Source: a phage
Length of the DNA stretch: 64,000 nt
Reading direction: 5' to 3' (one strand)
Sequence record: PZ053912.1
The notes under the pieces are model-generated. The model saw only the letters and a program-made list of their open reading frames with translations. It did no database searches and was not told the DNA's origin. The position numbers and the translations under genes were made by a program. Positions 199 through 24,650 of the stretch are shown here, piece after piece. Positions within the stretch are counted from its first letter, which is position 1. Each line of letters opens with the position of its first letter.

Positions 199-540
199 TT
201 AAAAGAATTTAAATTTTTTCTTGGTCCGTTCATTAAAAGCTTGTTGTACTTGCATTGTAACACATTTTTCAACATGTGGTGCAAGTTCTGCTTTTCTATC
301 CTGGTCAAGAACTGCAAAGTCCATTACGATTTTACCATCAACCCAGTCTAGTTTTGTAATATAGACTATATGATGAGAACCGTCTTCAAGTGTAATCAGA
401 ATCTCTTGAATGACATTTTCCATTGCTGAACGGATAATTTTAAGAGATTCATTAAACACTCGTTCTTTGCGAATGTCTTCCCCTTCCGAAGAAGGGGATT
501 CATCAACGATTTCTAGATTTAAATCATCGAGATTATTCAT
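199..540 (-). CDS. 40: gp40-like head vertex assembly protein; start taken at internal ATG 538-540 overlapping the uvsX stop
   Basis: ORF 199..561; 114 aa from MNNLDDLNLEIVD; position between uvsX and 41 as in T4. Confidence 0.6.
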   Translation of the reverse strand: MNNLDDLNLEIVDESPSSEGEDIRKERVFNESLKIIRSAMENVIQEILITLEDGSHHIVYITKLDWVDGKIVMDFAVLDQDRKAELAPHVEKCVTMQVQQAFNERTKKKFKFF

Positions 541-1705
541 CGAAATCTTCCATTTCGTCAAGGTCGTTTTCTATATCTGCTGCAGACGGAGCATCAGAAG
601 TTTTAACCGGAACTTTAGTTGTTGCTTTGCAATTAATAAGGTCATTAACAGCGTCATCAACTTCTTTAATAGAAGAGATAGCACCTAGTTTATATTTAGT
701 TTCAATTGCATCTCGGAAAGGTTTGTGTTTAAACAACGGTCCCCAGAATTCTACACAATCAGTAGCTTTAGCACGCCATGATTTCTCTTCACGAATCATT
801 TCGCCTGTTTCTTCGTCAAGGAATTCTCGAGCATACCAACCAGCTTTAGGCTTAACCACAAAACCGATTTCAGTTGCCATTTCTAACAAGCCACTGAATG
901 GGTCGATACCACCATCGAAATTAACCGTGATTGGGAAAGTAGATTTCTCTTTAACTGTACGAGATTTTTCTGCTTTCAACGTGAAGTCATAACCGGTCAA
1001 TTCTGTACCTTCTTTAACCTGACGTTTAGAGATAAAGAATACGGTGTTAGCAGAGTAAAGAATACCTGTGCCACCGCCCATAATCTCTTTAGGATACAAT
1101 CCGCCAATTTCCATTGCTGTATGGTTGATTGCAACACATGGAATATCTTTAATAGTCAGATAAGGAGTCACAATGCGGAACAGAGATTTAAGTGCCTTAG
1201 CACGAGACATATCACCTACGACTTTCTCGTTCAATGCATCTTCGGTTTCTTTCTTAGATGCAGTATTACCGATTGAATCGATAAAGATAATAACTTTATC
1301 ACCGCGTTCAATCGCGTCAAGCTGATTAGTCATATCAACTTTAAGTTGTTCGACAGATTGAATCGGAGTATGAACTACACGGTCTAAATCAACACCCATT
1401 GAACGAAAATAAGATTCTGAAGCACCAAATTCTGAATCATAGAACAAACAAATTGCATCTTTATATTTCTTCATATATGCTGCAACCATGGTCAGTCCAA
1501 ACAACGTTTTAAAGTGTTTAGAAGGAGCAGCAAAAATAGTTAAGCCTGATTGCAACCCGGCATTCAGTGCACCACCTAATGCAATATTCAACATCGGAAT
1601 ACGAGTAGGGACTTCATCGCGATTATTAAACAGCTTAGACTTAGTCAAGTCTGCAGTCATTTTAGAAGTAGAAGCTTTAATCAGACGAGATTTTAAATCA
1701 GACAT
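533..1705 (-). CDS. uvsX: UvsX RecA-like recombinase
   Basis: 390 aa; MSDLKSRLIKASTSKMTADL... and RecA-fold core recalled from T4 UvsX. Confidence 0.95.
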   Translation of the reverse strand: MSDLKSRLIKASTSKMTADLTKSKLFNNRDEVPTRIPMLNIALGGALNAGLQSGLTIFAAPSKHFKTLFGLTMVAAYMKKYKDAICLFYDSEFGASESYFRSMGVDLDRVVHTPIQSVEQLKVDMTNQLDAIERGDKVIIFIDSIGNTASKKETEDALNEKVVGDMSRAKALKSLFRIVTPYLTIKDIPCVAINHTAMEIGGLYPKEIMGGGTGILYSANTVFFISKRQVKEGTELTGYDFTLKAEKSRTVKEKSTFPITVNFDGGIDPFSGLLEMATEIGFVVKPKAGWYAREFLDEETGEMIREEKSWRAKATDCVEFWGPLFKHKPFRDAIETKYKLGAISSIKEVDDAVNDLINCKATTKVPVKTSDAPSAADIENDLDEMEDFDE

Positions 1706-1804
1706 TGTATTTTTCCATAGGCATCATTATATTTTACTCATGTTTAAAAGATAAGATGATTATATACTAAGGGTTATACAGCATTTAAAACTTTAAACAG
1801 GCTC

Positions 1805-2353
1805 TTAACGAGCCCATTTGATAATTTCTGTAATCAAATAATTACGTTCGCTTGCATTAAATCCTATAACTTTGTTAGCACCGTCATGATTAAGTAATTG
1901 ATACGTTTGGATTTTGTTATGAATTGCAAACTCTTCAAAATATGAAATGACTGTATTAAAACCGAATGAAGACAAAGTAATAAGATCGTCTTCAAAACTT
2001 TCAGTCATTTCGTTACGTGTTAAAATAATTGTGAACACATCATGGTTTTGGCAAAGACGAACATAATCCTGTTCATAAACGTCAAGAACCGAGTCCGCAT
2101 CTTGTCGAATACGTCCATAAACCCAGTTACTAATATATCCACGGTCTAACAGATAAATCTTAGTAGGGTCTAAATAATTCAACATCGTTTCGAAACAGCC
2201 AACTTCATTTCGAGACTTAACATCGAAACGTCCATCAACTGTTCGTTTAGGGAAATCAATCTTTACATATCTTTCACTAATTTCCATTATGTCATTAATG
2301 AAAGTTGTTTTACCAGCATTATCCGGGCCATCTACTAAAATAATTTTAGCCAT
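1805..2353 (-). CDS. P-loop NTPase, small kinase-like protein, substrate unknown
   Basis: 182 aa; Walker A GPDNAGKTT at residues 9-17; sits in the block between uvsX and gene 42. Confidence 0.5.
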   Translation of the reverse strand: MAKIILVDGPDNAGKTTFINDIMEISERYVKIDFPKRTVDGRFDVKSRNEVGCFETMLNYLDPTKIYLLDRGYISNWVYGRIRQDADSVLDVYEQDYVRLCQNHDVFTIILTRNEMTESFEDDLITLSSFGFNTVISYFEEFAIHNKIQTYQLLNHDGANKVIGFNASERNYLITEIIKWAR

Positions 2354-2354
2354 T

Positions 2355-3254
2355 TTATTCCTCGATTACGACATCTTCATATTTAGGTATATTATACGGC
2401 GAAGAAATTAAAGCGTTAAAGTAGATGAACTCGCCAAGACCTGGATGGAATACTTCTTCAGGATTTTCGAAATATTGAATCTTCGGCCGTCCTTTAAGAA
2501 TTTGATAGTACTCAGTTTTAGTTGGTTTAAAAATTCGAATCAGCGCTTCTTCAGGATACTTATTTCTGTCGAAGCTATTATTTGGATCGGTTATATAAAG
2601 CGGTTGGCCTAATTGAATTGCACATTCAACCACTTGTTCAAAACGATAGCACGGGTCACTAATTCGAAATGGATGAAAAATACCATCTAGATGAATAGGA
2701 GCCAAATCACCTACAAGACGCTGCATGATGGAAGGACGTATAACTTTCTGGGTTACGATAATCTTATTACCATCTGCACCTGCGTTAACCAGCACTTCTT
2801 TTTGACGTTCATTCAACACAGTAGTTTGAAGTGAACGATTAACCGACAACATATCAGTTTTTAAGAATTCGTCAATATAAAAACGTGGTTTATTAGGGTC
2901 TGCAGTGATATTGAAATTGAATTCCACATCAAAAGCGCCGTCATATCCGGTGATATCTGTGATTAGAAAATCACAATCATAATAAGCAATTAATGAATCA
3001 ACCACAAATTCATTTTCAGACCAGAAATATTTACGAGTGTTATACGCGTTATCTTTATACCATAATGGAACAAACTTAAATTCTGGAAAAAGACGTTCGC
3101 ATTCTTTAATATCAGATGCATTACGTGGATATGTAATCACATCACCCGGATTAGCACGGTGCAAATGAAGTTGGAAGTTGCCATCCTTAAGGATAGCATA
3201 CTGTCCAGTTTCATAAGACCGCATACTCAAGATAGGTACGCGGAAATTAGCCAT
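2355..3254 (-). CDS. Hypothetical protein at the locus where T4 has beta-glucosyltransferase; candidate DNA sugar transferase (inference only)
   Basis: 299 aa ORF tightly packed between the P-loop gene and gene 42; no resemblance to T4 beta-gt or any motif I recognise. Confidence 0.4.
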   Translation of the reverse strand: MANFRVPILSMRSYETGQYAILKDGNFQLHLHRANPGDVITYPRNASDIKECERLFPEFKFVPLWYKDNAYNTRKYFWSENEFVVDSLIAYYDCDFLITDITGYDGAFDVEFNFNITADPNKPRFYIDEFLKTDMLSVNRSLQTTVLNERQKEVLVNAGADGNKIIVTQKVIRPSIMQRLVGDLAPIHLDGIFHPFRISDPCYRFEQVVECAIQLGQPLYITDPNNSFDRNKYPEEALIRIFKPTKTEYYQILKGRPKIQYFENPEEVFHPGLGEFIYFNALISSPYNIPKYEDVVIEE

Positions 3255-3970
3255 TAGTCAAGGAATCCTTTAACATAATCAAAATCACGTTCAAACACAT
3301 GGGCACTTACCATGGTATGAGTATAATCACCAACTTCTACACCACATTCGTTAGCGATATAATGAAGTAATTTTCCTTGGAGATAAAAATCCAACTGCAT
3401 AACAACAGCACAGTTCTGAGAACGCATATGACAGTGGGTATAAAGCTTACCATCACGAATATAATAAGTCACTGAGTCAGTACATGGATATTCAAGTGTT
3501 TCGTCCGAATCAAGCAAAGCCTGATCTGAACTTTCAAGAATTTGAAACACAACTCTTCGAGAGTTAGGTTTCTCTTTAAGTTCTTTGAGAAGAGCTGGTA
3601 ATTGGGCCGCAATGCGAGGACCATAGAAAGTGTTGAAGTTCGCCGGCAAAACATCTGATTTTGGTTTAGAAATAAATTTAGCGACATTAGGATATGCCTT
3701 AAACGCTTCTTCTGCGTTGGTACCACCAGAAATCATAAACTTCCAGAAGTCTTCGGCATATTCATAAGAGATGCGGTTAATACGTGGGTCGGTCATTTTG
3801 AATGATGATGGAGTGTCAACAACTACTGTCATAGACCCAATTTCATTACAACGTCCAATACGAGAATCAGTTACGAATTCCGGGTTTTCTAAAATTTCAC
3901 GATTGACTGCTTTAAATGCGGTTTGAAAATCTGCGGCTTTGATATATTTCATTGTGTTATGTTTTCCCAT
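3254..3970 (-). CDS. 42: dCMP hydroxymethylase (thymidylate synthase family)
   Basis: 238 aa; CTDSVTYYIRDGKLYTHCHMRSQNCAVV resembles the active-site block of T4 gp42/thymidylate synthases; T4 position of gene 42. Confidence 0.8.
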   Translation of the reverse strand: MGKHNTMKYIKAADFQTAFKAVNREILENPEFVTDSRIGRCNEIGSMTVVVDTPSSFKMTDPRINRISYEYAEDFWKFMISGGTNAEEAFKAYPNVAKFISKPKSDVLPANFNTFYGPRIAAQLPALLKELKEKPNSRRVVFQILESSDQALLDSDETLEYPCTDSVTYYIRDGKLYTHCHMRSQNCAVVMQLDFYLQGKLLHYIANECGVEVGDYTHTMVSAHVFERDFDYVKGFLD

Positions 3971-3990
3971 GTTTACCTCAATACAATTTA

Positions 3991-4014
3991 TTATATACTC
4001 AATTCGTAAAGCTT
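3991..4014 (-). promoter_or_regulatory. Candidate MotA-type middle promoter upstream of gene 42
   Basis: Minus strand AAGCTTTAC (MotA-box-like) about 11 nt upstream of TATAAT, about 20 nt before the gene 42 ATG. Confidence 0.3.
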
Positions 4015-4146
4015 ATTTGAATTTCTTGACAATGTTGATATAACGTAAAGCTTCAGCATCGATACTTCCAAGAACACTATGAAGAAATGCATCAGCGTAG
4101 TATTCCAATTGAACAGGTTTCTTTAATCACTTTAGCCGCTTTAGTT

Positions 4147-4170
4147 TCAAACAGGCCCTTATGGGCCTGT
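4147..4170 (-). terminator. GC-rich perfect palindrome AAACAGGCCC-TTAT-GGGCCTGTTT (10-bp stem); terminator-like hairpin after the 386-aa gene
   Basis: Seen directly; no clear U tract. Confidence 0.35.
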
Positions 4171-4249
4171 TTAAGAATTTGTTCGTTGCTGTTAATTTTC
4201 ATAGTCAAAATCTCTTCATTAAGTTGGTGGTTAAAAGTTTTTCTAGAAA

Positions 4250-5410
4250 TCATTCCGGGTACCTCAAAGCGTCATCAGAGTTAGTTATATCAATAATAGA
4301 TATAGAGTTTTCTGCTAACCCATTTTTAGATAACTGACGTTTATAATATCTTTCACAATATGTACACGTCGTCCCGCAGATTTCATTAGCACAATCGAAA
4401 TCTGGATGTCTGAACCACCTTTTTTCTAAAAAGCCGTCTAACAAAGAGGTTTCAATATTTACTGTATGTGAAAACTCAATTTCGTTTTCAAGAGTGAAAA
4501 TAGTCTCTAAAGGCTTCCACAGTTCTAACAAATTACCTTCAAACTTTTCAGAAGCGTATGCTTCAAGAACTTTCAAAATGTAGTCTGTGCTACCTGTACG
4601 TCCTGAAACTTTGAATTGAGTGATACCAATATCATTATAAAGTTTCAAATCTTGAGGACGAACAAAACGAGTTCTCAACCAGTTAAATGGGTCTGTATCA
4701 CGAGCTTTAATACAGTGCTGCATAGGATATCCGTTTAAGGATTTAGCATCATCAGCTGTAACATCAGTACTATGGAAAATATAGCAAGAGTCACGATAGC
4801 TACAATGTGTTGTATACCCTTTACCAGCATTAGAACAGAACTCATTTACAAGAACTTCAAATATTATATTGTTCTTATTGCAAAACTCTGCTGCACGCTT
4901 CAGGAAAGAAACTGAACGGTTCTTATGAATTCCACAGCAGACCTTTTTGATATTATATTGGTCATGCAAATATTTGATTTGAGTTACAGCATCGACATGT
5001 AGAATTGTTGAAACTTCAATCTCAATGTCTTTATTGACTTCACGAACAATTTCCATAACAACAGGGTTAGCGATAGTAATACGCCATACGCCTATTGACC
5101 AAAGATACTGAACATAATCCTGAATAGCTTTCTTCTTCCACTCAACTAGTTCTCTTTTTGAACCAGGATTTATCGTGTTGAGTGTATAGTTAAAGCAAAT
5201 ACCTAATTCGTTACAACGTTTAACGTAATCTTCTAACATCTTTTTGTCAACGTCAGGAAGCCTAAAATCAGGTCTGGCTGCTACAAAAGCCATTTCTCTT
5301 GTAGAGCCGTATACTTCATTTATCAAGCTATTAGGATAAGTTTTATTGAGCTCTACGATTTTATCAAGAAGAGCTAAATCAAAATTCGTTCCGATTTTAA
5401 AAGTATTCAT
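4250..5410 (-). CDS. Cys-rich enzyme-like protein of unassigned family; possible Fe-S protein
   Basis: 386 aa; Cys clusters CSNAGKGYTTHCSYRDSC and C-terminal CANEICGTTCTYC (contains CxxxCxxC); lies inside the sugar-nucleotide gene block. Confidence 0.45.
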   Translation of the reverse strand: MNTFKIGTNFDLALLDKIVELNKTYPNSLINEVYGSTREMAFVAARPDFRLPDVDKKMLEDYVKRCNELGICFNYTLNTINPGSKRELVEWKKKAIQDYVQYLWSIGVWRITIANPVVMEIVREVNKDIEIEVSTILHVDAVTQIKYLHDQYNIKKVCCGIHKNRSVSFLKRAAEFCNKNNIIFEVLVNEFCSNAGKGYTTHCSYRDSCYIFHSTDVTADDAKSLNGYPMQHCIKARDTDPFNWLRTRFVRPQDLKLYNDIGITQFKVSGRTGSTDYILKVLEAYASEKFEGNLLELWKPLETIFTLENEIEFSHTVNIETSLLDGFLEKRWFRHPDFDCANEICGTTCTYCERYYKRQLSKNGLAENSISIIDITNSDDALRYPE

Positions 5411-5467
5411 TTTTTTACATCTCGCGTTAATTGATGCGATGGTTTTTTGCAGGTCTTACTTAAATTA

Positions 5468-5854
5468 TTATAGATTCGGTTTATATGATTTAAATGTTTC
5501 GAATTCGCCTTTATTCATAAGAGCTTTGAATTCGTCAGGACGCATAGCTTTGTCGTCGATAATCCAATCATATACTGGTTTATGTGTTAGCAAATTATGG
5601 TACTTCAAGCCAATGTTTGCCAAGTTCTGAATCAGACTTGGGAGAATGTCAATTGCTATACGACCAGGACCTACTGACTTCATACCACGAGCAGTGTAAA
5701 GCGTTATGGTATGCCCTGCATCATACAGGGCATTAATGGCAGACACCATTTCGACGTCTGGTTTGAAGTTCACGTAATCACGATTGTTATTCCACTCTGT
5801 TATACAATCATCGACATCAAAACAAAGATTAAGCATGTTTTCTACACGGTGCAT
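5468..5854 (-). CDS. HAD-superfamily phosphatase, small
   Basis: HAD motif I FDVDDCIT and C-terminal KPxxDWIIDD; start ambiguous (ATG at 5869, 5854 or 5836); 5854 gives a TAATG overlap with the upstream stop. Confidence 0.65.
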   Translation of the reverse strand: MHRVENMLNLCFDVDDCITEWNNNRDYVNFKPDVEMVSAINALYDAGHTITLYTARGMKSVGPGRIAIDILPSLIQNLANIGLKYHNLLTHKPVYDWIIDDKAMRPDEFKALMNKGEFETFKSYKPNL

Positions 5855-7542
5855 TAGATTCGTTCCCATTGATGAGTGATATCGCCACCGATTGGACGAT
5901 AGGAAACACCAGTTTCTTTATCAGTTAGTACCCATTTACCAGGATTTTTTGTAATCAGAGTAGCCGTTACAGGTTCTGCTACGTCATAACTAATAGAGCC
6001 GTCTTGAAGTACACGGCCCATGTTACGTAATTGCTTAGTCAGAAGTTCCATACCTTTATAATATGCGGCTACCGCTTTAAGTGGATTATTCTTGAAATAA
6101 CCACCTAATGCAATCCAGATAATTGCCACTGCCAAATGATGATACTCGTTAAACGAACTCATCTTTCCATATTTGTAAACTAATGGATTGATGTTAATAG
6201 TCACATTACAAGTTGTTTCATCAATAGTAAACTGTCCCCAGGTCGGATTAGCATTGAATTCATCATAACCTGAAACAGCATAAAGCACTTTAGCTTCATC
6301 GTACAATTTTGGCCCGTAAATCTTGGTTTCGCCAAAATATCCACGAGGGTCGATAAACTTGACTTCACCATTATCAGTAATCATAGTATTACTGAAGTTC
6401 GGGTCACCATGAATAACAGAGTACTGTCCCTGAGAACGGTTATGATAACGAATAAGGTGTTCTAAAGCTTGTTTCAACATTGGCTTCAGACGTCCAATCT
6501 TAGTGTAGTTCACATGTGTGATTTTACCGAATGAATCAATCAATGGTTGAATACTTTCACAACGATCAATAACTTTCGTATAGAACTCTTTAGTGAAATC
6601 ACGGCGAACAGTTTCAGGACTTACAAAATAAGTGTCTGTGCTGAATTTCAGTGCATCTAAAATTGCATCAACAATTTGTGGACGAGCAAGACTCGATTTG
6701 GATTTAATATATTCAAATGCCGGCTTACCTTTAATGCGTTCCATAATAAAGTGGCCGCCAGGATGATAACTTACAATCCGTGGAACTGAATCTGATTTAA
6801 CTTTCTTATACCAATTGACTTCATCTTTTTGAAGTGCAACGCCCTGTTCTGTTAAAGCAATCTTTGTTACCGTTTCTTCGCCAATTTCAACTGCATTAAA
6901 ACTACGATTAAGTTCACGAACTTCATGAGCTTTTTCAAGTTTAGGCATATCACCAAGGTCGATGATATTCATAAGCTCTGATTTATTGAATGCGCTGCCG
7001 TAAAGGAATTCTACGAAATCACGTCCTTTGCAGTATTCATGAATTTCCTCATCAGTAGAACCCATATAGAATTCCCAGTCTTTGAACTGATAAATTCCTA
7101 CAACATTACCACCTGTTGAACCTACATTAGTGATATTTTCACCGTCGAAATTATATCGACATTCGTCACCCTTAACATAGATTGCGTTAACATTCCAAGA
7201 CCACGAACCAAAATCAGGAATAATATCACACCAGTTAACAATTACATTATGGCCGTCTAAATCTTTGTGCAATTTAGCAAGAGCATAAGCAGAACCATAC
7301 GCTTCATCAACTGTACGAATAGTCACATTGAACCCTTCTTGCTCACAATAAGCTCGAACAGTTTCAGCAAATTTTGAATGAACTACTACAATAATTTCAT
7401 CTGCGCCAAGGTCAGAATAAATTGTATACAAATTGCTCAGAATAGTGTCTTGTTTATAGTTAACAAGCACCTTAGGAATATGATGCGTTATTGGATACAA
7501 ACGAGTTGCCAGTCCAGCACCAAGAATAACAGCTTTTTTCAT
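5854..7542 (-). CDS. Bifunctional sugar-phosphate nucleotidyltransferase (N-terminal) / APH-choline-kinase-fold kinase (central-C-terminal)
   Basis: 562 aa; N-terminal AVILGAGLATRL glycine-rich nucleotidyltransferase signature; later VIHGDPNFSN ... KFIDPRG resembles the catalytic loop of APH/choline kinases. Confidence 0.7.
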   Translation of the reverse strand: MKKAVILGAGLATRLYPITHHIPKVLVNYKQDTILSNLYTIYSDLGADEIIVVVHSKFAETVRAYCEQEGFNVTIRTVDEAYGSAYALAKLHKDLDGHNVIVNWCDIIPDFGSWSWNVNAIYVKGDECRYNFDGENITNVGSTGGNVVGIYQFKDWEFYMGSTDEEIHEYCKGRDFVEFLYGSAFNKSELMNIIDLGDMPKLEKAHEVRELNRSFNAVEIGEETVTKIALTEQGVALQKDEVNWYKKVKSDSVPRIVSYHPGGHFIMERIKGKPAFEYIKSKSSLARPQIVDAILDALKFSTDTYFVSPETVRRDFTKEFYTKVIDRCESIQPLIDSFGKITHVNYTKIGRLKPMLKQALEHLIRYHNRSQGQYSVIHGDPNFSNTMITDNGEVKFIDPRGYFGETKIYGPKLYDEAKVLYAVSGYDEFNANPTWGQFTIDETTCNVTININPLVYKYGKMSSFNEYHHLAVAIIWIALGGYFKNNPLKAVAAYYKGMELLTKQLRNMGRVLQDGSISYDVAEPVTATLITKNPGKWVLTDKETGVSYRPIGGDITHQWERI

Positions 7543-7723
7543 GTTGTGGTCCTCATTGGTAAGTAGGAGTATTGTACACTATTCTAGTTAAAGCATTCAT
7601 ACTTTGCTTGTAGTCCAATCATAATCCATCCAATTACAAGTGTTGGAATCATTACTGGAGCCGTTAAGCTCCAGTAGATAGTCATGACAAGCATCAATAG
7701 TAAAAGTCCTATTGTTATTGCTT

Positions 7724-8359
7724 TCATTGTTCGCCTCGTAACATGGCACCTAGTGCACCGCCAGGGTGGAACTTAAGGAAGTCATTAGAGGTAAATCCAC
7801 GCTCAGACGAAAGGTTGATAGCAAACGTATCGATAAGCGCTAACAACAATGTAGTGGACATGGTCGGAGCCAGAGAATTCTCATCAACCTCTACTGCGAT
7901 GCCTGTACAGAAAGAGTAATCAAAAAGGGCTTCATTTTCTTGTGGAATGTCCGGGTTACAATGCAACAGAATCTGTTTGACGTTCGGACGAATCATTTTA
8001 AGATGCTTAGCCACGCCTATCATTTCTTCAGTTTTACCAGAACGACTAATATGAATCAACACATCATTAGGCGCAATGAATCCTGCATCACCGTGAGAAT
8101 AATGCCCAGTGTTCAAGTACATACTCGGGATACCGAGTGAAGCAAATGTCTCAGAAGCTTTAGTTGCAATATTAGCATTCTTACCAACACCTGTAATAAT
8201 TACTCGGCTTTCATAATTACTAAGTCCTGGGCGTCGAAGAGTTTCTAGAATAGCATTATAACGAGCAGGGTTTTGACTAATTACTTTGGCCATAGCGGCC
8301 AAAGAAGAAGCTTGTTTTATGATTGCGTCAATAGCGATAGTAATAGGAGTAGTTTTCAT
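7724..8359 (-). CDS. SIS-domain sugar-phosphate isomerase, KdsD/GutQ-like arabinose-5-phosphate isomerase core without CBS domains
   Basis: 211 aa; GVGKNANIATKASETFASLG, HGDAGFIAP, ISRSGKTEE and C-terminal FHPGGALG match my memory of the KdsD SIS domain. Confidence 0.75.
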   Translation of the reverse strand: MKTTPITIAIDAIIKQASSLAAMAKVISQNPARYNAILETLRRPGLSNYESRVIITGVGKNANIATKASETFASLGIPSMYLNTGHYSHGDAGFIAPNDVLIHISRSGKTEEMIGVAKHLKMIRPNVKQILLHCNPDIPQENEALFDYSFCTGIAVEVDENSLAPTMSTTLLLALIDTFAINLSSERGFTSNDFLKFHPGGALGAMLRGEQ

Positions 8360-8399
8360 ATTTCTCTCATTTAATTAGTTTACCGTCCATGACATTATA

Positions 8400-11111
8400 T
8401 CAAAAATCGAACATATCGAACAGAGATGCTTTCTTCTCGTAATCGAGTTTCGCTGCTGATGTGAATCCTTCAAGTGGTTTAATAAATGTCTTCTCAAGGA
8501 GAACAGTGTAGTCCATCCAATGAAGTACGTCGTCTTTAATTAAATCGGTGATTTCAGTACCAGAAGGCCATGCGATACATTTATCACCGAATGGGTTTCC
8601 TTCACGTAAAGGCAGAACATATACTTTTTCACCTTCTACAACTTGCGGTGCATCGATATTACCTTTGATAGCCCGGTTATACGTCAGAATTCCACGAATA
8701 TGGAACGGGCATTTGGGACCAGGGAATCCACCTACATCATATTTAGCAATGTTATTCGCAGAAGATACCGACGCGATGCTAATATAATTCAATTGACGGA
8801 ATTCTTTTTCAAACTCTTTAAAATATTCTTGTAATGATTCTTCACCTTCTTGAAGCATACGACGAATACATTCTTTAAGAGCTTTCTGTACTGCTTTAGG
8901 AGTCGAAGATTTCTGAGTCTCTAGACCCATGATTTTGAGTTTAGGCTCAGCGTAACGAGTACCTTCCATATCCCACACGTTTAATGCATAACGTTTCTTA
9001 CCAGTCCAGAATCCACCAATACCTTTAGAACCGAGTGGAGGCCCAGCGATAGCTTCTCGGTCCATGAACATTAAGTGTTGTTTATTGTTCATGTATTCAC
9101 ACATTTCACGGAAACCTCTATCAATAGCTGGTTCCATACGTTCACGAGCGAACTTATCTAAGAAGTCTACCCAATGGTTGGTATCACGGAATTTAGATTC
9201 ACCAACCTTATCGATAATTTTATCAGCAGATACGTAAATAGAGTCTGTATCACCATAAAGAACGAAAGCTTCACCTTCTGTACCACAAACTTCATTCAGA
9301 TATTCATTAACTTTACGTTCAATCCACTGTAAAGCCATTTGACCAAATGTTGTGATTGCAGTAGCATTACGCAAATCATAATAACGGAACCAAACGTTGC
9401 CAAGTGCACCATAAAGTGAGTTGATAAGCAATTTACGGTTAATTTGGGCAGTCATACCTGCAACTTCAGTACGTTGAGCTCTAAACAACATTTCATTAAG
9501 AGATTTAGCAGACAACTTTTTAATCTTTTCTTTAATCTCATCGCTGAAGTCGAAACGATAATCAACATCTAATGGTTCGTCAACAGAAAGATTAGGATTA
9601 TGCAATGCCTCTTTAATTATTTCGCCATTACGTTGAGCCGCAAGCATATAACCTTTATGTTCTTTACGTTGATTAAAGACCTTAGTGATTTCAGTTGGAA
9701 CTACACCATCACGGTCTTTATAATACATCATGCCGTTAGGAGAGCAACTGTACACATCGGAAGGACGTTCAGCGATTGCGTTAATATAATCATGTAGTGG
9801 AGCTACTTTAAACGTTCCTGCTATTGTTTCTGGGCTAATATTCACTTGGCGAATAATACTTGGATACAGAGATGTAAGGTCGAAACTCATTACATATTTG
9901 TATCGATTTGGAATAGGTTCCTTAACAAAAGCGCCGGGATAAGGTTGAACCGGGTGAGAACGACCTTGTGGAATCACCTTGTTCTGCTCTTTAAGGCTAT
10001 TAAAAATAATAGCATCCCATGTTTTAATTGGGCTAAACACAGATTGAATCTGTATCTTAGCATAATAACCCATGTCCAAACTCAAGTTGATGAACTGACG
10101 CTTAGCATCAATTTGCAATACACGATACACGTCGATAATGTTATAAGAAATATATCGTTGGTGATTGCTTTCACGAAGCTTAGAAATAGGGCCGTCATAT
10201 TTCAGTTTACCAACGTTCAATTCAAATTCTGAAATGTAATCCAGAGAATATGACGGTTGATTGGTAAAAGAGAATTTTTTGTAAAGGTCAATGTAATCAA
10301 GAACAGAGATACCGAACAATGTAATGATTTCACGAGAACCATACATGTTTTCGATAACTTTAACACGAGTTTTACGATGTGGTGATAAACGTTTCGCAGT
10401 AGATTCGCCAAAAATATTCTTGATTCGGTTATACACATATGGAATATCAAATGACTCAACGTTCCATCCAGTCAAAATGACAGGAGTTTTCTGTTGCCAG
10501 AAGTTGAGATATTCCATCAACAATTCTTTTTCGTTATCGAACGGCATATAAATGATTTTATCGATAATTTCTGATGGAACTTCATCACCACCTTGTTCTT
10601 GAAGCTTAGCCGCAATTTCGATAGACCATTCTTCTACATTACCATATGGAGAATTCAATAGATCAAATACGTAGAACCTGTCATCAATTGAGTCATAATG
10701 GGTGATAGCATCAATCGGATGTTTTGCTTGCGACGGCTCAGGGAACCCATCCGGAGATGTTACTTCGATGTCGAAGTTAGCCACACGAATTTTTGTATGG
10801 TCGTATTTGATTTCATAGTTATAAGTGTCAGACAAATACGCCAATTTGAAATCGTCCATGCCAAGTGCTTCAAGTCCGATATCTTCCATGCGTTTAATCC
10901 ATTGGGAGGCATCACGCATATTAGCGAACAACTTACGAGTGCACGGCTTACCGTAGATATCGAAATATTTCGTAGCCTGACTTTCTGGACAATGAGCAAA
11001 CAGTGATGGTTTATATTCTACTTCACGAGTACGTTCACGACCATTAGAATCGATGTAACGTTCAAAAATTGAATCACCAATCTGTTCAACCGTTAAGTAA
11101 AATTCTTTCAT
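8400..11111 (-). CDS. 43: DNA polymerase gp43 (family B)
   Basis: 903 aa; MKEFYLTVEQIGDSIFERYIDSNGRERTREVEYKPSLF..., exo motif FDIEV, pol motifs SLYPS and YGDTDS; recalled as RB69-type gp43. Confidence 0.97.
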   Translation of the reverse strand: MKEFYLTVEQIGDSIFERYIDSNGRERTREVEYKPSLFAHCPESQATKYFDIYGKPCTRKLFANMRDASQWIKRMEDIGLEALGMDDFKLAYLSDTYNYEIKYDHTKIRVANFDIEVTSPDGFPEPSQAKHPIDAITHYDSIDDRFYVFDLLNSPYGNVEEWSIEIAAKLQEQGGDEVPSEIIDKIIYMPFDNEKELLMEYLNFWQQKTPVILTGWNVESFDIPYVYNRIKNIFGESTAKRLSPHRKTRVKVIENMYGSREIITLFGISVLDYIDLYKKFSFTNQPSYSLDYISEFELNVGKLKYDGPISKLRESNHQRYISYNIIDVYRVLQIDAKRQFINLSLDMGYYAKIQIQSVFSPIKTWDAIIFNSLKEQNKVIPQGRSHPVQPYPGAFVKEPIPNRYKYVMSFDLTSLYPSIIRQVNISPETIAGTFKVAPLHDYINAIAERPSDVYSCSPNGMMYYKDRDGVVPTEITKVFNQRKEHKGYMLAAQRNGEIIKEALHNPNLSVDEPLDVDYRFDFSDEIKEKIKKLSAKSLNEMLFRAQRTEVAGMTAQINRKLLINSLYGALGNVWFRYYDLRNATAITTFGQMALQWIERKVNEYLNEVCGTEGEAFVLYGDTDSIYVSADKIIDKVGESKFRDTNHWVDFLDKFARERMEPAIDRGFREMCEYMNNKQHLMFMDREAIAGPPLGSKGIGGFWTGKKRYALNVWDMEGTRYAEPKLKIMGLETQKSSTPKAVQKALKECIRRMLQEGEESLQEYFKEFEKEFRQLNYISIASVSSANNIAKYDVGGFPGPKCPFHIRGILTYNRAIKGNIDAPQVVEGEKVYVLPLREGNPFGDKCIAWPSGTEITDLIKDDVLHWMDYTVLLEKTFIKPLEGFTSAAKLDYEKKASLFDMFDF

Positions 11112-22365: not shown

Positions 22366-22836
22366 TTAATCATGTTTCCACACCCCATCGGTATTTGACC
22401 AAAGTCGCTGATTATCTGATCCTCGCCACAGCTTTTTAGTCGGAAGATTTTTCTCATACTTCCCATCAATAATAACATCAACATATTTAAGCATTTCTAG
22501 TTGTTTAATATCTTCAAACTTATATCCTGTCCACAACCAAATGCTTTTATTAGGATAAAGATTTTTTACTGTTTGAACGATGCAATGAACAACATCTCGG
22601 TTGTCAGGATAGAGAGGGTCACCTCCGGTTATAGTCAATCCTTCTATATAATCATTATTCAAGCATTCAATTAATTGTTCTAGTGTCTCTCCAGTGAATG
22701 GAATGCCATTTCTAGCATTCCATGTTGATTTATTATAACACCCTTCGCATTTATGCAAACAACCTGTAACGAAAAGAACGACCCTGCATCCAGGGCCATT
22801 CACAAAATCGCAAGGATAAAATCTATCATAATTCAT
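22366..22836 (-). CDS. nrdG: Anaerobic ribonucleotide reductase activase NrdG (radical SAM)
   Basis: 156 aa; CLHKCEGCYN (CxxxCxxC); adjacent to nrdD. Confidence 0.9.
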   Translation of the reverse strand: MNYDRFYPCDFVNGPGCRVVLFVTGCLHKCEGCYNKSTWNARNGIPFTGETLEQLIECLNNDYIEGLTITGGDPLYPDNRDVVHCIVQTVKNLYPNKSIWLWTGYKFEDIKQLEMLKYVDVIIDGKYEKNLPTKKLWRGSDNQRLWSNTDGVWKHD

Positions 22837-24650
22837 TGGTGTTTAACCCTATGCATGATTTCTTTATTTTTACCGAGATTAAATCCGCGTTCGTTCGGAT
22901 TTCCCAAATAACCGCATGTTCTTCTTATGGTGTTCATCTTTTTAGGATCACTTTCTCCACAAATAGAACAAACAAATCCGTTTTCAGTAGGAGTCATTTC
23001 ATGGGTACTTCCACATGTAAAACATTTATCTACTGGCATATTAACACCAAAATAATCTAAATGCTGTGCAGCATAATCCCATACAGCCTCAAGACCTTTT
23101 AGGTTATTTTTCATATCAGGAAGTTCAACATAAGAAATGTGACCACCTGTTGCAATGAAATGATACGGGGCTTCGCGAGAAATCTTTTCAAACGGAGTAA
23201 TATTTTCTTCTACCGAAACGTGGAAACTATTAGTGTACCAGCCTTTATCAGTAACATCTTTTACACTTCCATATTTCTCAGTATCAAGTTTACAGAAGCG
23301 ATAGCACAGGTTTTCAGCAGGTGTAGAATACAAGCTAAAAGCAAAACCGGTTCTTTCAGTCCACTGCTTAAGACGAGCATTCATTTTAGTTAAAATTTCC
23401 TGTCCAATATCACGTCCGACAAGAATATTCAATTCGTGAATACCAATGTATCCTAGGGACACTGAACTTCTACCATTTTTAAATAACTCAATTATATCGT
23501 CATCAGGTTTAAGACGAACCCCGAATGCACCTTCTTGGTAAAGAATAGGAGCTACAGTTGCTTTAACACCCTTTAAAGAACTAATTCTACACATCAAAGC
23601 TTCAAAACACAGATCCATTCGTTCATTAAATAGCTCAACAAATTTCTGTTCATTGAATTGTGTTCCAATATAAGAATCTAATGCAATACGAGGAAGATTC
23701 AGTGTTACAACACCAAGATTATTACGTCCATCAAGAATTTCATTACCAGTCGAATCTTTCCATACGCTCAAGAAACTACGACAGCCCATCGGAGAAACAG
23801 GAACTGAAGAACCAGTAATAGCTTTATTATTCTTAACCGAAATAATGTCAGGATACATTCTTTTGCTTGCACATTCTAACGCAAGTTGTTTAATATCATA
23901 GTTCGGATCATCTTTATAAAGATTAACACCTTCTTCAACAAACATAACAAGTTTAGGAAAAATAGGAGTTATCCCATCACGACCAAGGCCTTTAATGCGG
24001 TTTTTAAGAATTGTCTTCTGAATAATTCGTTCAGTCCAGTCAGTTCCAGTACCAAATGTAATTGTCACAAAAGGCGTTTGTCCGTTTGAACTAAAGAGAG
24101 TATTTACTTCATATTCATAAGCTTGGAATGCATCGTATACGTCTTTTTCTGTTTTAGATTGGGCGTAATTCAACGCATCAGCGATTTGCCATTTTTCTGC
24201 ATCCTCAATATGTTTTGCATAGGTGCGTTTAACATAAGGAGAAAGTACTTTATCTACATTCGCAAATGTAGTTCCACCATACTGATGCGAAGCAACTTGT
24301 GCAGTAATTTGTGCCATAATTGCAGTAGCAACGCCAATAGATTTAGGCGTTTCAATTTGAGCATTGCCTAATTTAAATCCATTCTCAAGCATTCCTTTTA
24401 AATCTACTAAACAGCAATTAGTAAATGGAAGAGCAGGAGAATAATCAATATCATGGAAATGGATAATTCCGCTTTCATGTGCTTTCATAATAAAAGACGG
24501 GACCATATTTTTGGCAATGTGCTTAGACACAATACCAGCCATAAGGTCCCGTTGAGTTGGAAAAACACGAGAATCTTTATTAGCATTCTCGTTCAAAAGA
24601 TCTTTATTAGTTTTATGAATTAATCCTTCAATTTCTTTTTCAATTTTCAT
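22833..24650 (-). CDS. nrdD: Anaerobic ribonucleoside-triphosphate reductase NrdD (glycyl radical enzyme), uninterrupted
   Basis: 605 aa; C-terminal Cys cluster CFTCGSTHE...CSICGESD and glycyl-radical tail RTCGYLG. Confidence 0.95.
   Translation of the reverse strand: MKIEKEIEGLIHKTNKDLLNENANKDSRVFPTQRDLMAGIVSKHIAKNMVPSFIMKAHESGIIHFHDIDYSPALPFTNCCLVDLKGMLENGFKLGNAQIETPKSIGVATAIMAQITAQVASHQYGGTTFANVDKVLSPYVKRTYAKHIEDAEKWQIADALNYAQSKTEKDVYDAFQAYEYEVNTLFSSNGQTPFVTITFGTGTDWTERIIQKTILKNRIKGLGRDGITPIFPKLVMFVEEGVNLYKDDPNYDIKQLALECASKRMYPDIISVKNNKAITGSSVPVSPMGCRSFLSVWKDSTGNEILDGRNNLGVVTLNLPRIALDSYIGTQFNEQKFVELFNERMDLCFEALMCRISSLKGVKATVAPILYQEGAFGVRLKPDDDIIELFKNGRSSVSLGYIGIHELNILVGRDIGQEILTKMNARLKQWTERTGFAFSLYSTPAENLCYRFCKLDTEKYGSVKDVTDKGWYTNSFHVSVEENITPFEKISREAPYHFIATGGHISYVELPDMKNNLKGLEAVWDYAAQHLDYFGVNMPVDKCFTCGSTHEMTPTENGFVCSICGESDPKKMNTIRRTCGYLGNPNERGFNLGKNKEIMHRVKHQ

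Follow-up and report, generated by a model that had tools for sequence, protein, structure and literature searches.

A 64,000-nucleotide stretch of phage DNA (sequence record PZ053912.1; hereafter the window) carries, at positions 1805-8359 (6555 nt), seven minus-strand open reading frames (ORFs) of 182, 299, 238, 386, 133, 562 and 211 aa, with uvsX on one side and the gene for DNA polymerase gp43 on the other. We conclude that this interval is very probably the Mosigvirus gene cluster that replaces cytosine with mono- and di-arabinosylated 5-hydroxycytosine (5hoC). The cluster and its product have already been published; what is new, as far as we could check, is our reading of the 386-aa protein, a member of the U32 family. 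We propose that it represents a phage-specific subfamily that would hydroxylate C5 of cytosine, in deoxycytidine monophosphate (dCMP), another deoxynucleotide or DNA, in a prephenate-dependent and O2-independent manner, and we judge the chances of this proposal to be about even. Our literature searches, with Mahler 2025 and He 2026 beyond reach, found no paper tying U32 proteins, prephenate or chorismate mutase to phage 5-hydroxycytosine.

Relationship to the RB69 pathway

Across all 6555 nt, the nucleotide sequence of the interval is 98.2% identical to that of Escherichia phage vB_EcoM-ZQ3, 98.1% to HY126 and 97.5% to RB69, and 152 phage records span at least 80% of it. These relatives are classified as Straboviridae, Tevenvirinae, Mosigvirus, and the phage of the window is a Mosigvirus. 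The Afh pathway of the Mosigvirus phages RB69, HY126, Bas46 and NP (gp45-gp55 in RB69) has the gene content and gene order of this interval, at 97-98% nucleotide identity: a 5-hydroxy-dCMP (5hodCMP) synthase, an arabinose-5-phosphate isomerase (API), AfhE-like and AfhF-like proteins, a GT-B transferase, a thymidylate-kinase-like kinase and the U32 protein. Where the RB69 frames are unbroken, the encoded proteins are 98-100% identical (kinase-like protein, 179/182 residues; ThyA homolog, 236/238; U32, 383/386; HAD, 127/128; SIS, 211/211). The 299-aa and 562-aa genes, whole in the window, are both split in the RB69 reference through sequencing errors acknowledged in print (for 52/53, by Thomas 2018); the homolog of RB69 ORF049c, in turn, is frameshifted in the window.

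RB69 DNA holds mono- and di-arabinosyl-5-hydroxycytosine, with the sugar joined directly to C5 by an ether oxygen, as established by liquid chromatography-mass spectrometry (LC-MS), nuclear magnetic resonance (NMR) and 18O2 labelling (Lee 2026, PMC13326640). Arabinosyl-5-hydroxy-2'-deoxycytidine has been shown in virion DNA of both RB69 and phage NP, which belong to the same genus. Since the window is nearly identical to RB69, HY126 and NP, we infer the same modification for its phage. In published work, arabinosyl-5-hydroxycytosine protects the DNA of phages against restriction enzymes and CRISPR nucleases and is a target of type IV systems; it is thus relevant to phage therapy and to the sequencing of such genomes.

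A predicted 5-hydroxy-dCMP synthase in the base branch

The 238-aa protein falls in the ThyA superfamily (Pfam Thymidylat_synt, 2.3e-15). Over its full length, it matches the Protein Data Bank (PDB) entries 9iqc/9ir2 (7.9e-161 over 238 aa) and 9iqu (1.7e-157) with five to six substitutions (~98% identity); its identity to T4 gp42 is 24.8% over 218 aa. In an alignment that includes E. coli ThyA and T4 gp42, Cys146, Arg166 and Ser167 are retained and the protein carries D169N, N177D and L143E, so that Cys146 occurs together with the three substitutions expected of a 5hodCMP synthase. At position 169, where T4 gp42, a folate-dependent dCMP hydroxymethylase, has Asp, the window protein has Asn, a published predictor of 5-hydroxy-dCMP synthases (PMC13326640). 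RB69 gp48 makes 5hodCMP with flavin, and the oxygen comes from 18O2 (Lee 2026, PMC13326640). Because of the D169N/N177D/L143E signature, the near-identity to 9iqc and the 24.8% identity to gp42, we assign the window protein as a flavin- and O2-dependent 5-hydroxy-dCMP synthase and not as gene 42. Its predicted activity would make the end product arabinosyl-5-hydroxycytosine.

An earlier note on this DNA had called this protein dCMP hydroxymethylase (42), described the module as fused to the 5-hydroxymethylcytosine (hmC) pathway and had the pentose transferred to hmC, pointing to reported arabinosyl-hmC in RB69-type phages. The arabinose of that report stands; the hmC base does not, having since been corrected in the literature. 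Thomas 2018 named the RB69 base arabinosyl-hmC from high-performance anion-exchange chromatography (HPAEC) and matrix-assisted laser desorption/ionization (MALDI) data, many GenBank records annotate the ThyA homolog as dCMP hydroxymethylase, and the protein does retain the catalytic Cys and the dCMP-specifying Asp of its superfamily. Against this, the NMR, LC-MS and 18O2 data for RB69 show an ether link to C5 and a 5hodCMP product (PMC13326640), so that arabinosyl-hmC is already refuted for the phage whose gp48 differs from the window protein at 2 of 238 residues; a 2026 Durham study of Mosigvirus NP also called the hmC assignment erroneous. We therefore consider it extremely unlikely that the window protein is a T4-type dCMP hydroxymethylase serving arabinosyl-hmC. 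Since the acceptor base is 5-hydroxycytosine, not 5-hydroxymethylcytosine (Lee 2026, PMC13326640), the module stands apart from the hmC pathway.

The system thus differs from the glucosylation of hmC in T4 (gp42, alpha- and beta-glucosyltransferase) at each level: the base is 5-hydroxycytosine rather than 5-hydroxymethylcytosine; the synthase uses flavin and O2, whereas T4 gp42, 25% identical, uses methylene-tetrahydrofolate and water (PMC13326640); and the sugar donor is phage-made uridine diphosphate (UDP)-arabinofuranose, whereas T4 draws on host UDP-glucose. A tblastn search of the 64 kb found no homolog of T4 alpha-gt, beta-gt or imm, or of RB69 ORF003c (best E 0.11), and the earlier observation that the window has no alpha-gt or beta-gt homolog is correct at the sequence level.

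In two T4-like metagenomic contigs, a Flavodoxin_2 gene, resembling flavin mononucleotide reductases, lies immediately upstream of a D169N ThyA-like gene (L024:6539-7054 and L025:6715-7275); in a third (L023:605-1123) it lies ~5 kb upstream of the ThyA-like synthase gene in the same cluster. The window's cluster has no flavodoxin-like gene. In these contigs, the flavodoxin-like protein may supply reduced flavin to the hydroxylase.

The sugar branch

The 211-aa protein is a KdsD/GutQ-type SIS isomerase (Pfam SIS, 1e-10; NCBIfam KpsF/GutQ, 2e-32, and KdsD, 7.1e-31), staying below both NCBIfam equivalog cutoffs because it consists of the SIS domain alone. Its PDB matches are 3etn (2.6e-25), 5uqi (4.1e-23) and E. 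coli KdsD 2xhz (3.5e-19). The single 562-aa ORF has the AfhE architecture. Its nucleotidyltransferase domain covers residues 3-109 (Pfam NTP_transferase, 9.6e-10, residues 3-99), and residues 238-410 give weak matches to APH, Fructosamin_kin and EcKL. The protein also matches NCBIfam sugar-1-phosphate nucleotidylyltransferases (down to 6.7e-14), LicC in the PDB (1jyk, 2e-05) and PHROG 4098 (2.9e-294). We assign it as a UDP-arabinofuranose (UDP-Araf) pyrophosphorylase at the N-terminus and an APH/choline-kinase-like arabinose-5-phosphate (Ara5P) 1-kinase at the C-terminus, on the evidence of its domains. The 133-aa protein is an AfhF-type HAD phosphatase, near-identical to PDB 9iqw (7.8e-88) and also matching 1xpj (5.2e-10) and the NCBIfam capsule biosynthesis phosphatase TIGR01689 (4.3e-13).

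The steps that these proteins would catalyse have been shown for near-identical homologs. The SIS isomerase would convert ribulose-5-phosphate to Ara5P, the product given by Lee 2026 (PMC13326640) in an account that also summarises He 2026. The C-terminal kinase of the 562-aa protein would then phosphorylate Ara5P at C1 to yield arabinose-1,5-bisphosphate, the HAD phosphatase would take off the 5-phosphate, and the N-terminal nucleotidyltransferase would make UDP-Araf; these three activities are attributed to the HY126 homologs in the summary of He 2026 within PMC13326640. Arabinose had been detected in the DNA of RB69 by Thomas 2018, who proposed ORF055c and ORF53_52c as the genes that serve UDP-arabinose synthesis. 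The pathway resembles that of NDP-heptose (GmhA, HldE, GmhB) in combining an isomerase, an anomeric kinase, a distal phosphatase and a nucleotidyltransferase, and in fusing kinase to transferase. It differs in having a SIS protein of the KdsD/GutQ type, an APH/choline-kinase-like kinase where HldE has one of the ribokinase type, a pentose, and UDP. For this branch, the earlier note fared well: profile searches placed its KdsD-like isomerase, HAD phosphatase and fused nucleotidyltransferase/kinase in the expected families, the NDP-heptose-like logic agrees with the published steps (Lee 2026, PMC13326640), and the predicted activated pentose from ribulose-5-phosphate matches Thomas 2018 and Lee 2026, given the near-identical RB69 proteins.

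Glycosyltransferase and thymidylate-kinase-like protein

The 299-aa protein, whose gene adjoins that of the synthase, has a GT-B glycosyltransferase (GT) fold, as expected for the first arabinosyltransferase of the cluster. A search of its family profile against PDB sequences gave chance matches only. The earlier note had left this protein unassigned; it is predicted to be the base-proximal arabinosyltransferase, that is, the transferase that the note had left unnamed, and would attach the first arabinose to the 5-hydroxyl through the ether link. A second arabinosyltransferase of the RB69 ORF003c / HY126 9iqz type, for di-arabinosylation, does not appear in the tblastn search of the window described above. 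In RB69, ORF003c lies between rIIA and gene 39, ~20 kb upstream of the corresponding interval; because of this position by rIIA, a homolog that would add the second arabinose is expected beyond the window, and its absence is not counted against membership of the cluster.

The 182-aa protein is P-loop kinase-like, as had been noted earlier: it has a Walker A motif and matches the thymidylate kinases of PHROG 761 (5.8e-45), and a search against PDB sequences gave no significant match. RB69 gp45 was labelled 'nucleotide kinase' from structure only (Lee 2026 Table 1, PMC13326640). The protein probably phosphorylates modified dCMP. Homologs of the kinase follow the GT gene in L024 (3e-17) and L025 (3e-16) and precede it in L020, a metagenomic contig that is not T4-like. 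GT and thymidylate-kinase-like genes are thus adjacent, and often overlapping, in very different phages (window 1805-3254; L024:8001-9588; L025:8001-9555; L020:8495-10032). In L023, the GT gene is followed by an ORF of kinase-like size with no kinase match.

A U32-family protein between the phosphatase and synthase genes

The Cys-rich 386-aa protein, also unassigned in the earlier note, passes the Pfam gathering score for Peptidase_U32 (PF01136; 7.3e-11, 42.2 bits against a cutoff of 22.4). It has the U32 TIM-barrel fold, and its structural likeness to aldolases and methylenetetrahydrofolate reductase is weaker. Studied members of the family are RlhA (5-hydroxycytidine, ho5C, in 23S rRNA), TrhP (5-hydroxyuridine, ho5U, in tRNA) and UbiU/UbiV (ubiquinone), all linked to hydroxylations that involve Fe-S clusters, require prephenate and are independent of O2; direct in vitro hydroxylase activity has been shown for none of them. 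Pyrimidine C5 is the target in two of these three reactions, the product of RlhA being 5-hydroxycytosine itself, and for UbiU/UbiV 18O labelling shows prephenate to be the oxygen donor.

We aligned 21 sequences of the phage U32 family, 48-87% identical to the window protein. Ten Cys residues are invariant (C158, C177, C192, C203, C209, C233, C340, C345, C349 and C352), as is E190, and 90% or more of the sequences have E185. The invariant Cys residues suggest that the protein binds one or more Fe-S clusters. Because a search against PDB sequences (nothing at E up to 1) and hhalign comparisons of the family profile with single E. coli TrhP and UbiU sequences (low probabilities) gave no usable match, we mapped residues with MAFFT and hidden Markov model (HMM) alignments. 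In these, E185 aligns with RlhA E161, TrhP E162 and the equivalent Glu of UbiU and UbiV. The family HMM sets the phage segment YRDSC209YIFHS opposite YSGQC176YISHA of RlhA, with C203 six residues upstream, so that C203 and C209 face RlhA C169/C176 and TrhP C170/C177. The residues essential in the characterised proteins are E161/C169/C176 in RlhA and E162/C170/C177 in TrhP. The Glu and two Cys of the U32 motif are therefore present in the phage family, at 14-23% identity to RlhA, TrhP, UbiU and UbiV and with a local insertion.

The phage protein reaches the equivalog score of none of the TrhP, RlhA, UbiU and UbiV subfamilies, Pfam detects neither Peptidase_U32_C nor DUF3656 in it, and it has a C-terminal C-x4-C-x3-C-x2-C motif of its own that sets it apart from the E. 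coli subfamilies. We place it in a separate clade, so far met on phage or phage-like contigs only. Its substrate would be a deoxynucleotide or DNA, in contrast to that of E. coli RlhA, the U32 protein for ho5C2501 of 23S rRNA. With UbiU/UbiV, which have a Cys-ligated 4Fe-4S cluster and take their oxygen from prephenate, it shares the U32 fold; unlike that heterodimer, which acts on a lipid together with UbiT, it is encoded by a single U32 gene, and the phage has no UbiT.

U32 and chorismate mutase in T4-like phages

By tblastn, the U32 protein occurs in 222 phage records, all at 81.6% identity or more, from Enterobacterales and Shewanella hosts. The 5hodCMP synthase occurs in 374 records, including 57 from Acinetobacter phages and 20 from Rhizobium phages; U32 was not found in any of these Acinetobacter and Rhizobium phages by tblastn. 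An Acinetobacter Lazarusvirus cluster without U32 still comprises genes for API, an AfhE-like protein, HAD, synthase, GT and kinase. Between genera, no other protein of the module is as well conserved as U32: its identity is 79-86%, that of the synthase 67-82%, that of the GT 45-68% and that of the kinase 35-72%.

A 79-aa chorismate mutase (Pfam CM_2, 2.4e-10, above cutoff) is encoded directly after U32 in Enterobacter phage Entb_45. With tblastn, chorismate mutases of this type are found in 51 records of phages that infect more than ten host genera, and in nearly all rows listed the gene adjoins U32, the ThyA-like gene or both. CM_2 was confirmed for Serratia phage LC53 (1.7e-11) and Shewanella phage Thanatos-1 (2e-8); in the latter, the gene order is rearranged and the U32-chorismate mutase pair is still adjacent. 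Invariant in the phage chorismate mutases are R8, R25, K36, E49, S71 and Q75, which we take to correspond to Arg11, Arg28, Lys39, Glu52, Ser84 and Gln88 of the active site of the E. coli enzyme. The phage arrangement, an O2-dependent hydroxylase paired with a U32 protein and joined in most genera by a chorismate mutase, recalls E. coli TrhP/TrhO (ho5U34 in tRNA), where two unrelated routes, one dependent on O2 and the other on a U32 Fe-S protein and prephenate, lead to a C5 hydroxyl on a pyrimidine.

The window also encodes an anaerobic ribonucleotide reductase, NrdG (156 aa, 80% identical to T4 NrdG) and NrdD (605 aa), at 22366-24650. The phage is thus equipped to synthesise deoxynucleoside triphosphates (dNTPs) without O2, though its characterised cytosine hydroxylase needs O2. 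NrdD is distributed too broadly in phages to be a guide to those that infect aerobes. A transposon-mutagenesis preprint that mentions LC53 contains no essentiality data for the cluster.

U32 genes outside T4-like phages

U32 homologs of 48-58% identity are abundant in metagenomes. We inspected loci of 15-21 kb each, with up to ~10 kb per side and less at contig ends. All eight U32 loci are phage-like, with DNA polymerase III alpha encoded in six of them; genes for primase, RecA, single-stranded DNA-binding protein or Mu F are met as well. A ThyA-like gene was not detected within the 15-21 kb of any of the eight. In five of them (L014, L015, L020, L021 and L022), none T4-like and four with DNA polymerase III alpha nearby, the gene next to U32 on its upstream side encodes a homolog of the 299-aa GT (E 3e-15 to 3e-8), and the U32 protein is 49-54% identical to that of the window. 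In the other three, U32 lies beside genes for dCMP deaminase, thymidylate kinase, uracil-DNA glycosylase, nucleotidase, deoxynucleoside kinase or nucleoside deoxyribosyltransferase. The reverse case is provided by the T4-like metagenomic contigs L023, L024 and L025, where the GT homolog is preceded by flavodoxin-like and ThyA-like (D169N/N177D/L143E) genes and no U32 gene lies within 8 kb. The GT family therefore adjoins a ThyA-like hydroxylase, a U32 protein, or both.

In L014, one of the contigs that encode DNA polymerase III alpha, a run of genes encodes the GT, a SIS isomerase (31%, 1e-18), an AfhE-like protein (28% over 523 aa, 1e-44), U32 and a 3-deoxy-D-arabino-heptulosonate-7-phosphate (DAHP) synthase. 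The run (L014:6939-12804; Logan SRR13394437_29825, 80 kb) ends with an NAD-dependent epimerase/reductase gene, and there is no ThyA-like gene within 10 kb. This looks like a second type of cluster for pentosyl-hydroxypyrimidine DNA modification. We considered whether the gene beside U32 encodes a 3-deoxy-D-manno-octulosonate-8-phosphate (KDO8P) synthase using Ara5P; DAHP synthase is favoured (NCBIfam, 2.6e-70 against 2.9e-17; 237 against 63 bits), though at a score below the curated cutoffs. On these annotations, the U32 gene appears to have gained two different shikimate-pathway neighbours independently, chorismate mutase and DAHP synthase.

The L020 cluster (L020:7777-16179; Logan SRR33454321_1371, 61 kb) contains homologs of the 182-aa kinase and the 299-aa GT, U32, a TAGT-like (Tet-associated) glycosyltransferase and a dUTPase/dCTP deaminase (DCD), with a Gly_transf_sug protein upstream and UDP-galactopyranose mutase ~3 kb downstream. 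It brings to mind Rhizobium phage RL38J1 with its hexose-modified 5hoC, except that U32 replaces the ThyA-like enzyme. Radical SAM genes of the SPASM type lie near four of the U32 homologs (L006:1-249, L007:12160-13185, L015:7972-9000 and L021:7980-9011), and a role of their products as U32 partner or maturase is possible. A second U32 paralog, very divergent in sequence, is present in L007.

A proposed O2-independent route to 5-hydroxycytosine

We propose that these phages have two routes to 5-hydroxycytosine. Under oxic conditions, the ThyA-superfamily enzyme would hydroxylate dCMP at C5 with flavin and O2, and the resulting 5hodCMP would join the dNTP pool. Under anoxia, for example in the gut, where the flavin/O2 enzyme would be idle, the U32 protein would make the same 5-hydroxypyrimidine by means of its Fe-S cluster with prephenate as oxygen donor, often helped by a phage chorismate mutase that would raise the prephenate level. 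The recurrence of chorismate mutase and DAHP synthase as partners points to prephenate. For the phage of the window, host PheA and TyrA would be the prephenate source, since no phage chorismate mutase is present. In some phages that are not T4-like, most with DNA polymerase III alpha nearby, U32 would be the only hydroxylase feeding the same GT family. Fe-S binding, the need for prephenate and independence of O2 are read from the ten Cys residues and from the chorismate mutase and DAHP synthase neighbours, and are proposed in that sense.

Several points weigh against this proposal or against parts of the wider pathway. Support for the U32 role comes from sequence and gene context; likewise, the modification of the DNA of this phage is read from near-identity to RB69, HY126 and NP. 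At 14-23% identity, hhalign and HMM scores of the phage protein against RlhA, TrhP, UbiU and UbiV are weak, the residue correspondence spans an insertion of ~10 residues, and the sole NCBIfam match, to UbiU, is far below threshold (9e-4, 18.5 bits against a cutoff of 440). Chorismate mutase is absent from the window, and the ORF at the place that it takes in other genera is frameshifted. E. coli Dhakavirus VR5 has the pathway without U32; since such Dhakavirus clusters exist, U32 must be accessory and dispensable for modification. The correlation of U32 with host and oxygen lifestyle involves few independent lineages, and the metagenomic loci are partial, so that a ThyA-like gene could lie farther off in those contigs. 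RB69 gp50 is tabled as a 'sugar or heterocycle reductase' and not discussed in the text of Lee 2026 (PMC13326640), and in the same study single DLP3 transferases showed no activity on 5hoC-containing DNA. The latter result and the conserved GT-kinase pair make glycosylation at the mononucleotide level possible: as a weaker corollary, the first sugar may be added to the mononucleotide, the thymidylate-kinase-like protein then phosphorylating the glycosylated dCMP.

The reductase label deserves consideration, since U32 lies inside the sugar/base cluster, between the phosphatase and synthase genes, its TIM barrel has that weaker likeness to aldolases and methylenetetrahydrofolate reductase, and in L014 it is flanked by sugar-nucleotide genes and the epimerase/reductase gene. 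As such, it might tailor the pentose or otherwise modify sugar or heterocycle. However, API, AfhE and AfhF already account for UDP-Araf in the account given in PMC13326640, phages with tri-arabinosyl-5hoC such as DLP3 do without U32, and no member of the family is known as a reductase. The recurring shikimate-pathway partners indicate prephenate instead, and in L006, L013 and L022 the U32 neighbours are dCMP deaminase, thymidylate kinase, ThyX and polymerase genes, with no sugar genes. We regard a reductase or other sugar-branch role as unlikely. Somewhat more doubtful still is that the protein is a collagenase-type peptidase, as database annotations ('peptidase', 'collagenase-like protease') have it, or acts outside DNA modification, for instance on the RNA or ubiquinone of the infected host. 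That the family has peptidase activity is itself doubtful, its best-studied members being implicated in hydroxylation, and the ten invariant Cys suggest Fe-S clusters. RlhA and TrhP do act on RNA, and a phage copy could target host rRNA or tRNA; yet the phage protein is without the C-terminal domains of RlhA (DUF3656) and TrhP (Peptidase_U32_C), and in very different phages its gene is consistently found among genes of deoxynucleotide metabolism and DNA glycosylation.

The shift from hydroxymethyl- to hydroxycytosine made the base pathway dependent on O2, yet these phages, whose hosts are gut bacteria, encode an anaerobic ribonucleotide reductase. A prephenate-dependent U32 hydroxylase, if that is what the protein is, would lift this dependence. 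It would then be the first U32 enzyme in DNA precursor metabolism, and a case of a virus using the recently discovered chemistry of organic oxygen donors; in uncultured phages of anoxic habitats, moreover, the gene would flag glycosylated 5-hydroxypyrimidine DNA. The proposal gives a testable role to a strongly conserved gene of the module, whose other point of residual interest is the conserved GT-kinase pair.

Gene layout and small features of the interval

The features of the interval and its flanks are given in Table 1. The earlier description of seven co-oriented, tightly packed genes between uvsX and gene 43 is borne out, all seven being on the minus strand and four junctions having a gap or overlap of only 1-16 nt; two small ORFs had been overlooked. 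Its account of T4, with beta-gt, 42 and imm in this place, is also right, the T4 order being uvsX-segA-b-gt-42-imm-imm.1-43. A scan of 1600-8500 for promoters and terminators gave sites no more numerous than in shuffled sequence.

Table 1. Features of the interval and flanking genes (positions in the window).
Feature	Position	Strand	Remarks
uvsX recombinase, flank, outside the pathway	533-1705	-	390-aa ORF; syntenic UvsX annotation in NRG-P0074 and RB69
P-loop thymidylate-kinase-like nucleotide kinase, RB69 gp45 homolog	1805-2353	-	182 aa; Walker A GPDNAGKT
GT-B fold glycosyltransferase, predicted base-proximal arabinosyltransferase, RB69 gp46:47 homolog	2355-3254	-	299 aa, intact
Predicted 5-hydroxy-dCMP synthase, ThyA superfamily, flavin- and O2-dependent	3254-3970	-	238 aa; RB69 gp48 homolog
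Remnant of RB69 ORF049c homolog, frameshifted	4013-4253	-	Partial ORFs 4092-4253 (53 aa) and 4013-4108 (31 aa)
U32-family Fe-S protein (predicted), RB69 gp50 homolog	4250-5410	-	386 aa; Pfam Peptidase_U32
HAD-type phosphatase, AfhF / RB69 gp51 homolog: arabinose-1,5-bisphosphate 5-phosphatase	5468-5869	-	133 aa; PDB 9iqw
Bifunctional AfhE / RB69 gp52:53 homolog, intact	5854-7542	-	562 aa; NTP_transferase and kinase-like C-terminal domain
Candidate small ORF, GTG start	7597-7749	-	50 aa; from the ORF list; no Pfam match
D-arabinose-5-phosphate isomerase, SIS domain only, RB69 gp55 homolog	7724-8359	-	211 aa
DNA polymerase gp43, flank	8400-11111	-	903-aa ORF; syntenic DNA polymerase annotation in relatives

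The 50-aa ORF overlaps the end of the SIS gene and lies within the 181-nt gap that precedes the bifunctional gene; small ORFs are annotated at the equivalent place in RB69 (ORF054c), NRG-P0074 and LC53, where a transmembrane peptide is predicted. Homing-endonuclease genes interrupt the cluster in two relatives, between the HAD and bifunctional genes in NRG-P0074 (L001:7003-7764) and between the HAD and U32 genes in LC53 (L016:4078-4716); the window's cluster has none, in this respect differing from that of NRG-P0074.

The frameshift in the ORF049c homolog comes from a single additional A (A-run 4118-4120); in RB69 and NRG-P0074, which lack this base, a 79-aa ORF is intact. The frameshift could reflect a sequencing error, a pseudogene or an ORF that is not a real gene. 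Since other genera have a chorismate mutase at this place, we considered the 79-aa ORF of Mosigvirus as a possible diverged chorismate mutase and rejected this, as it has no Pfam match and an hhalign probability of 0.16%. Within the small ORF, positions 4153-4168 of the minus strand form a GC-rich hairpin with a 6-bp stem (AGGCCC-ATAA-GGGCCT) that is not followed by a T-run. The stem is kept in RB69 and NRG-P0074, where the loop alone differs (TGAT), which points to a conserved structure, of RNA or DNA, between the genes for U32 and the synthase.

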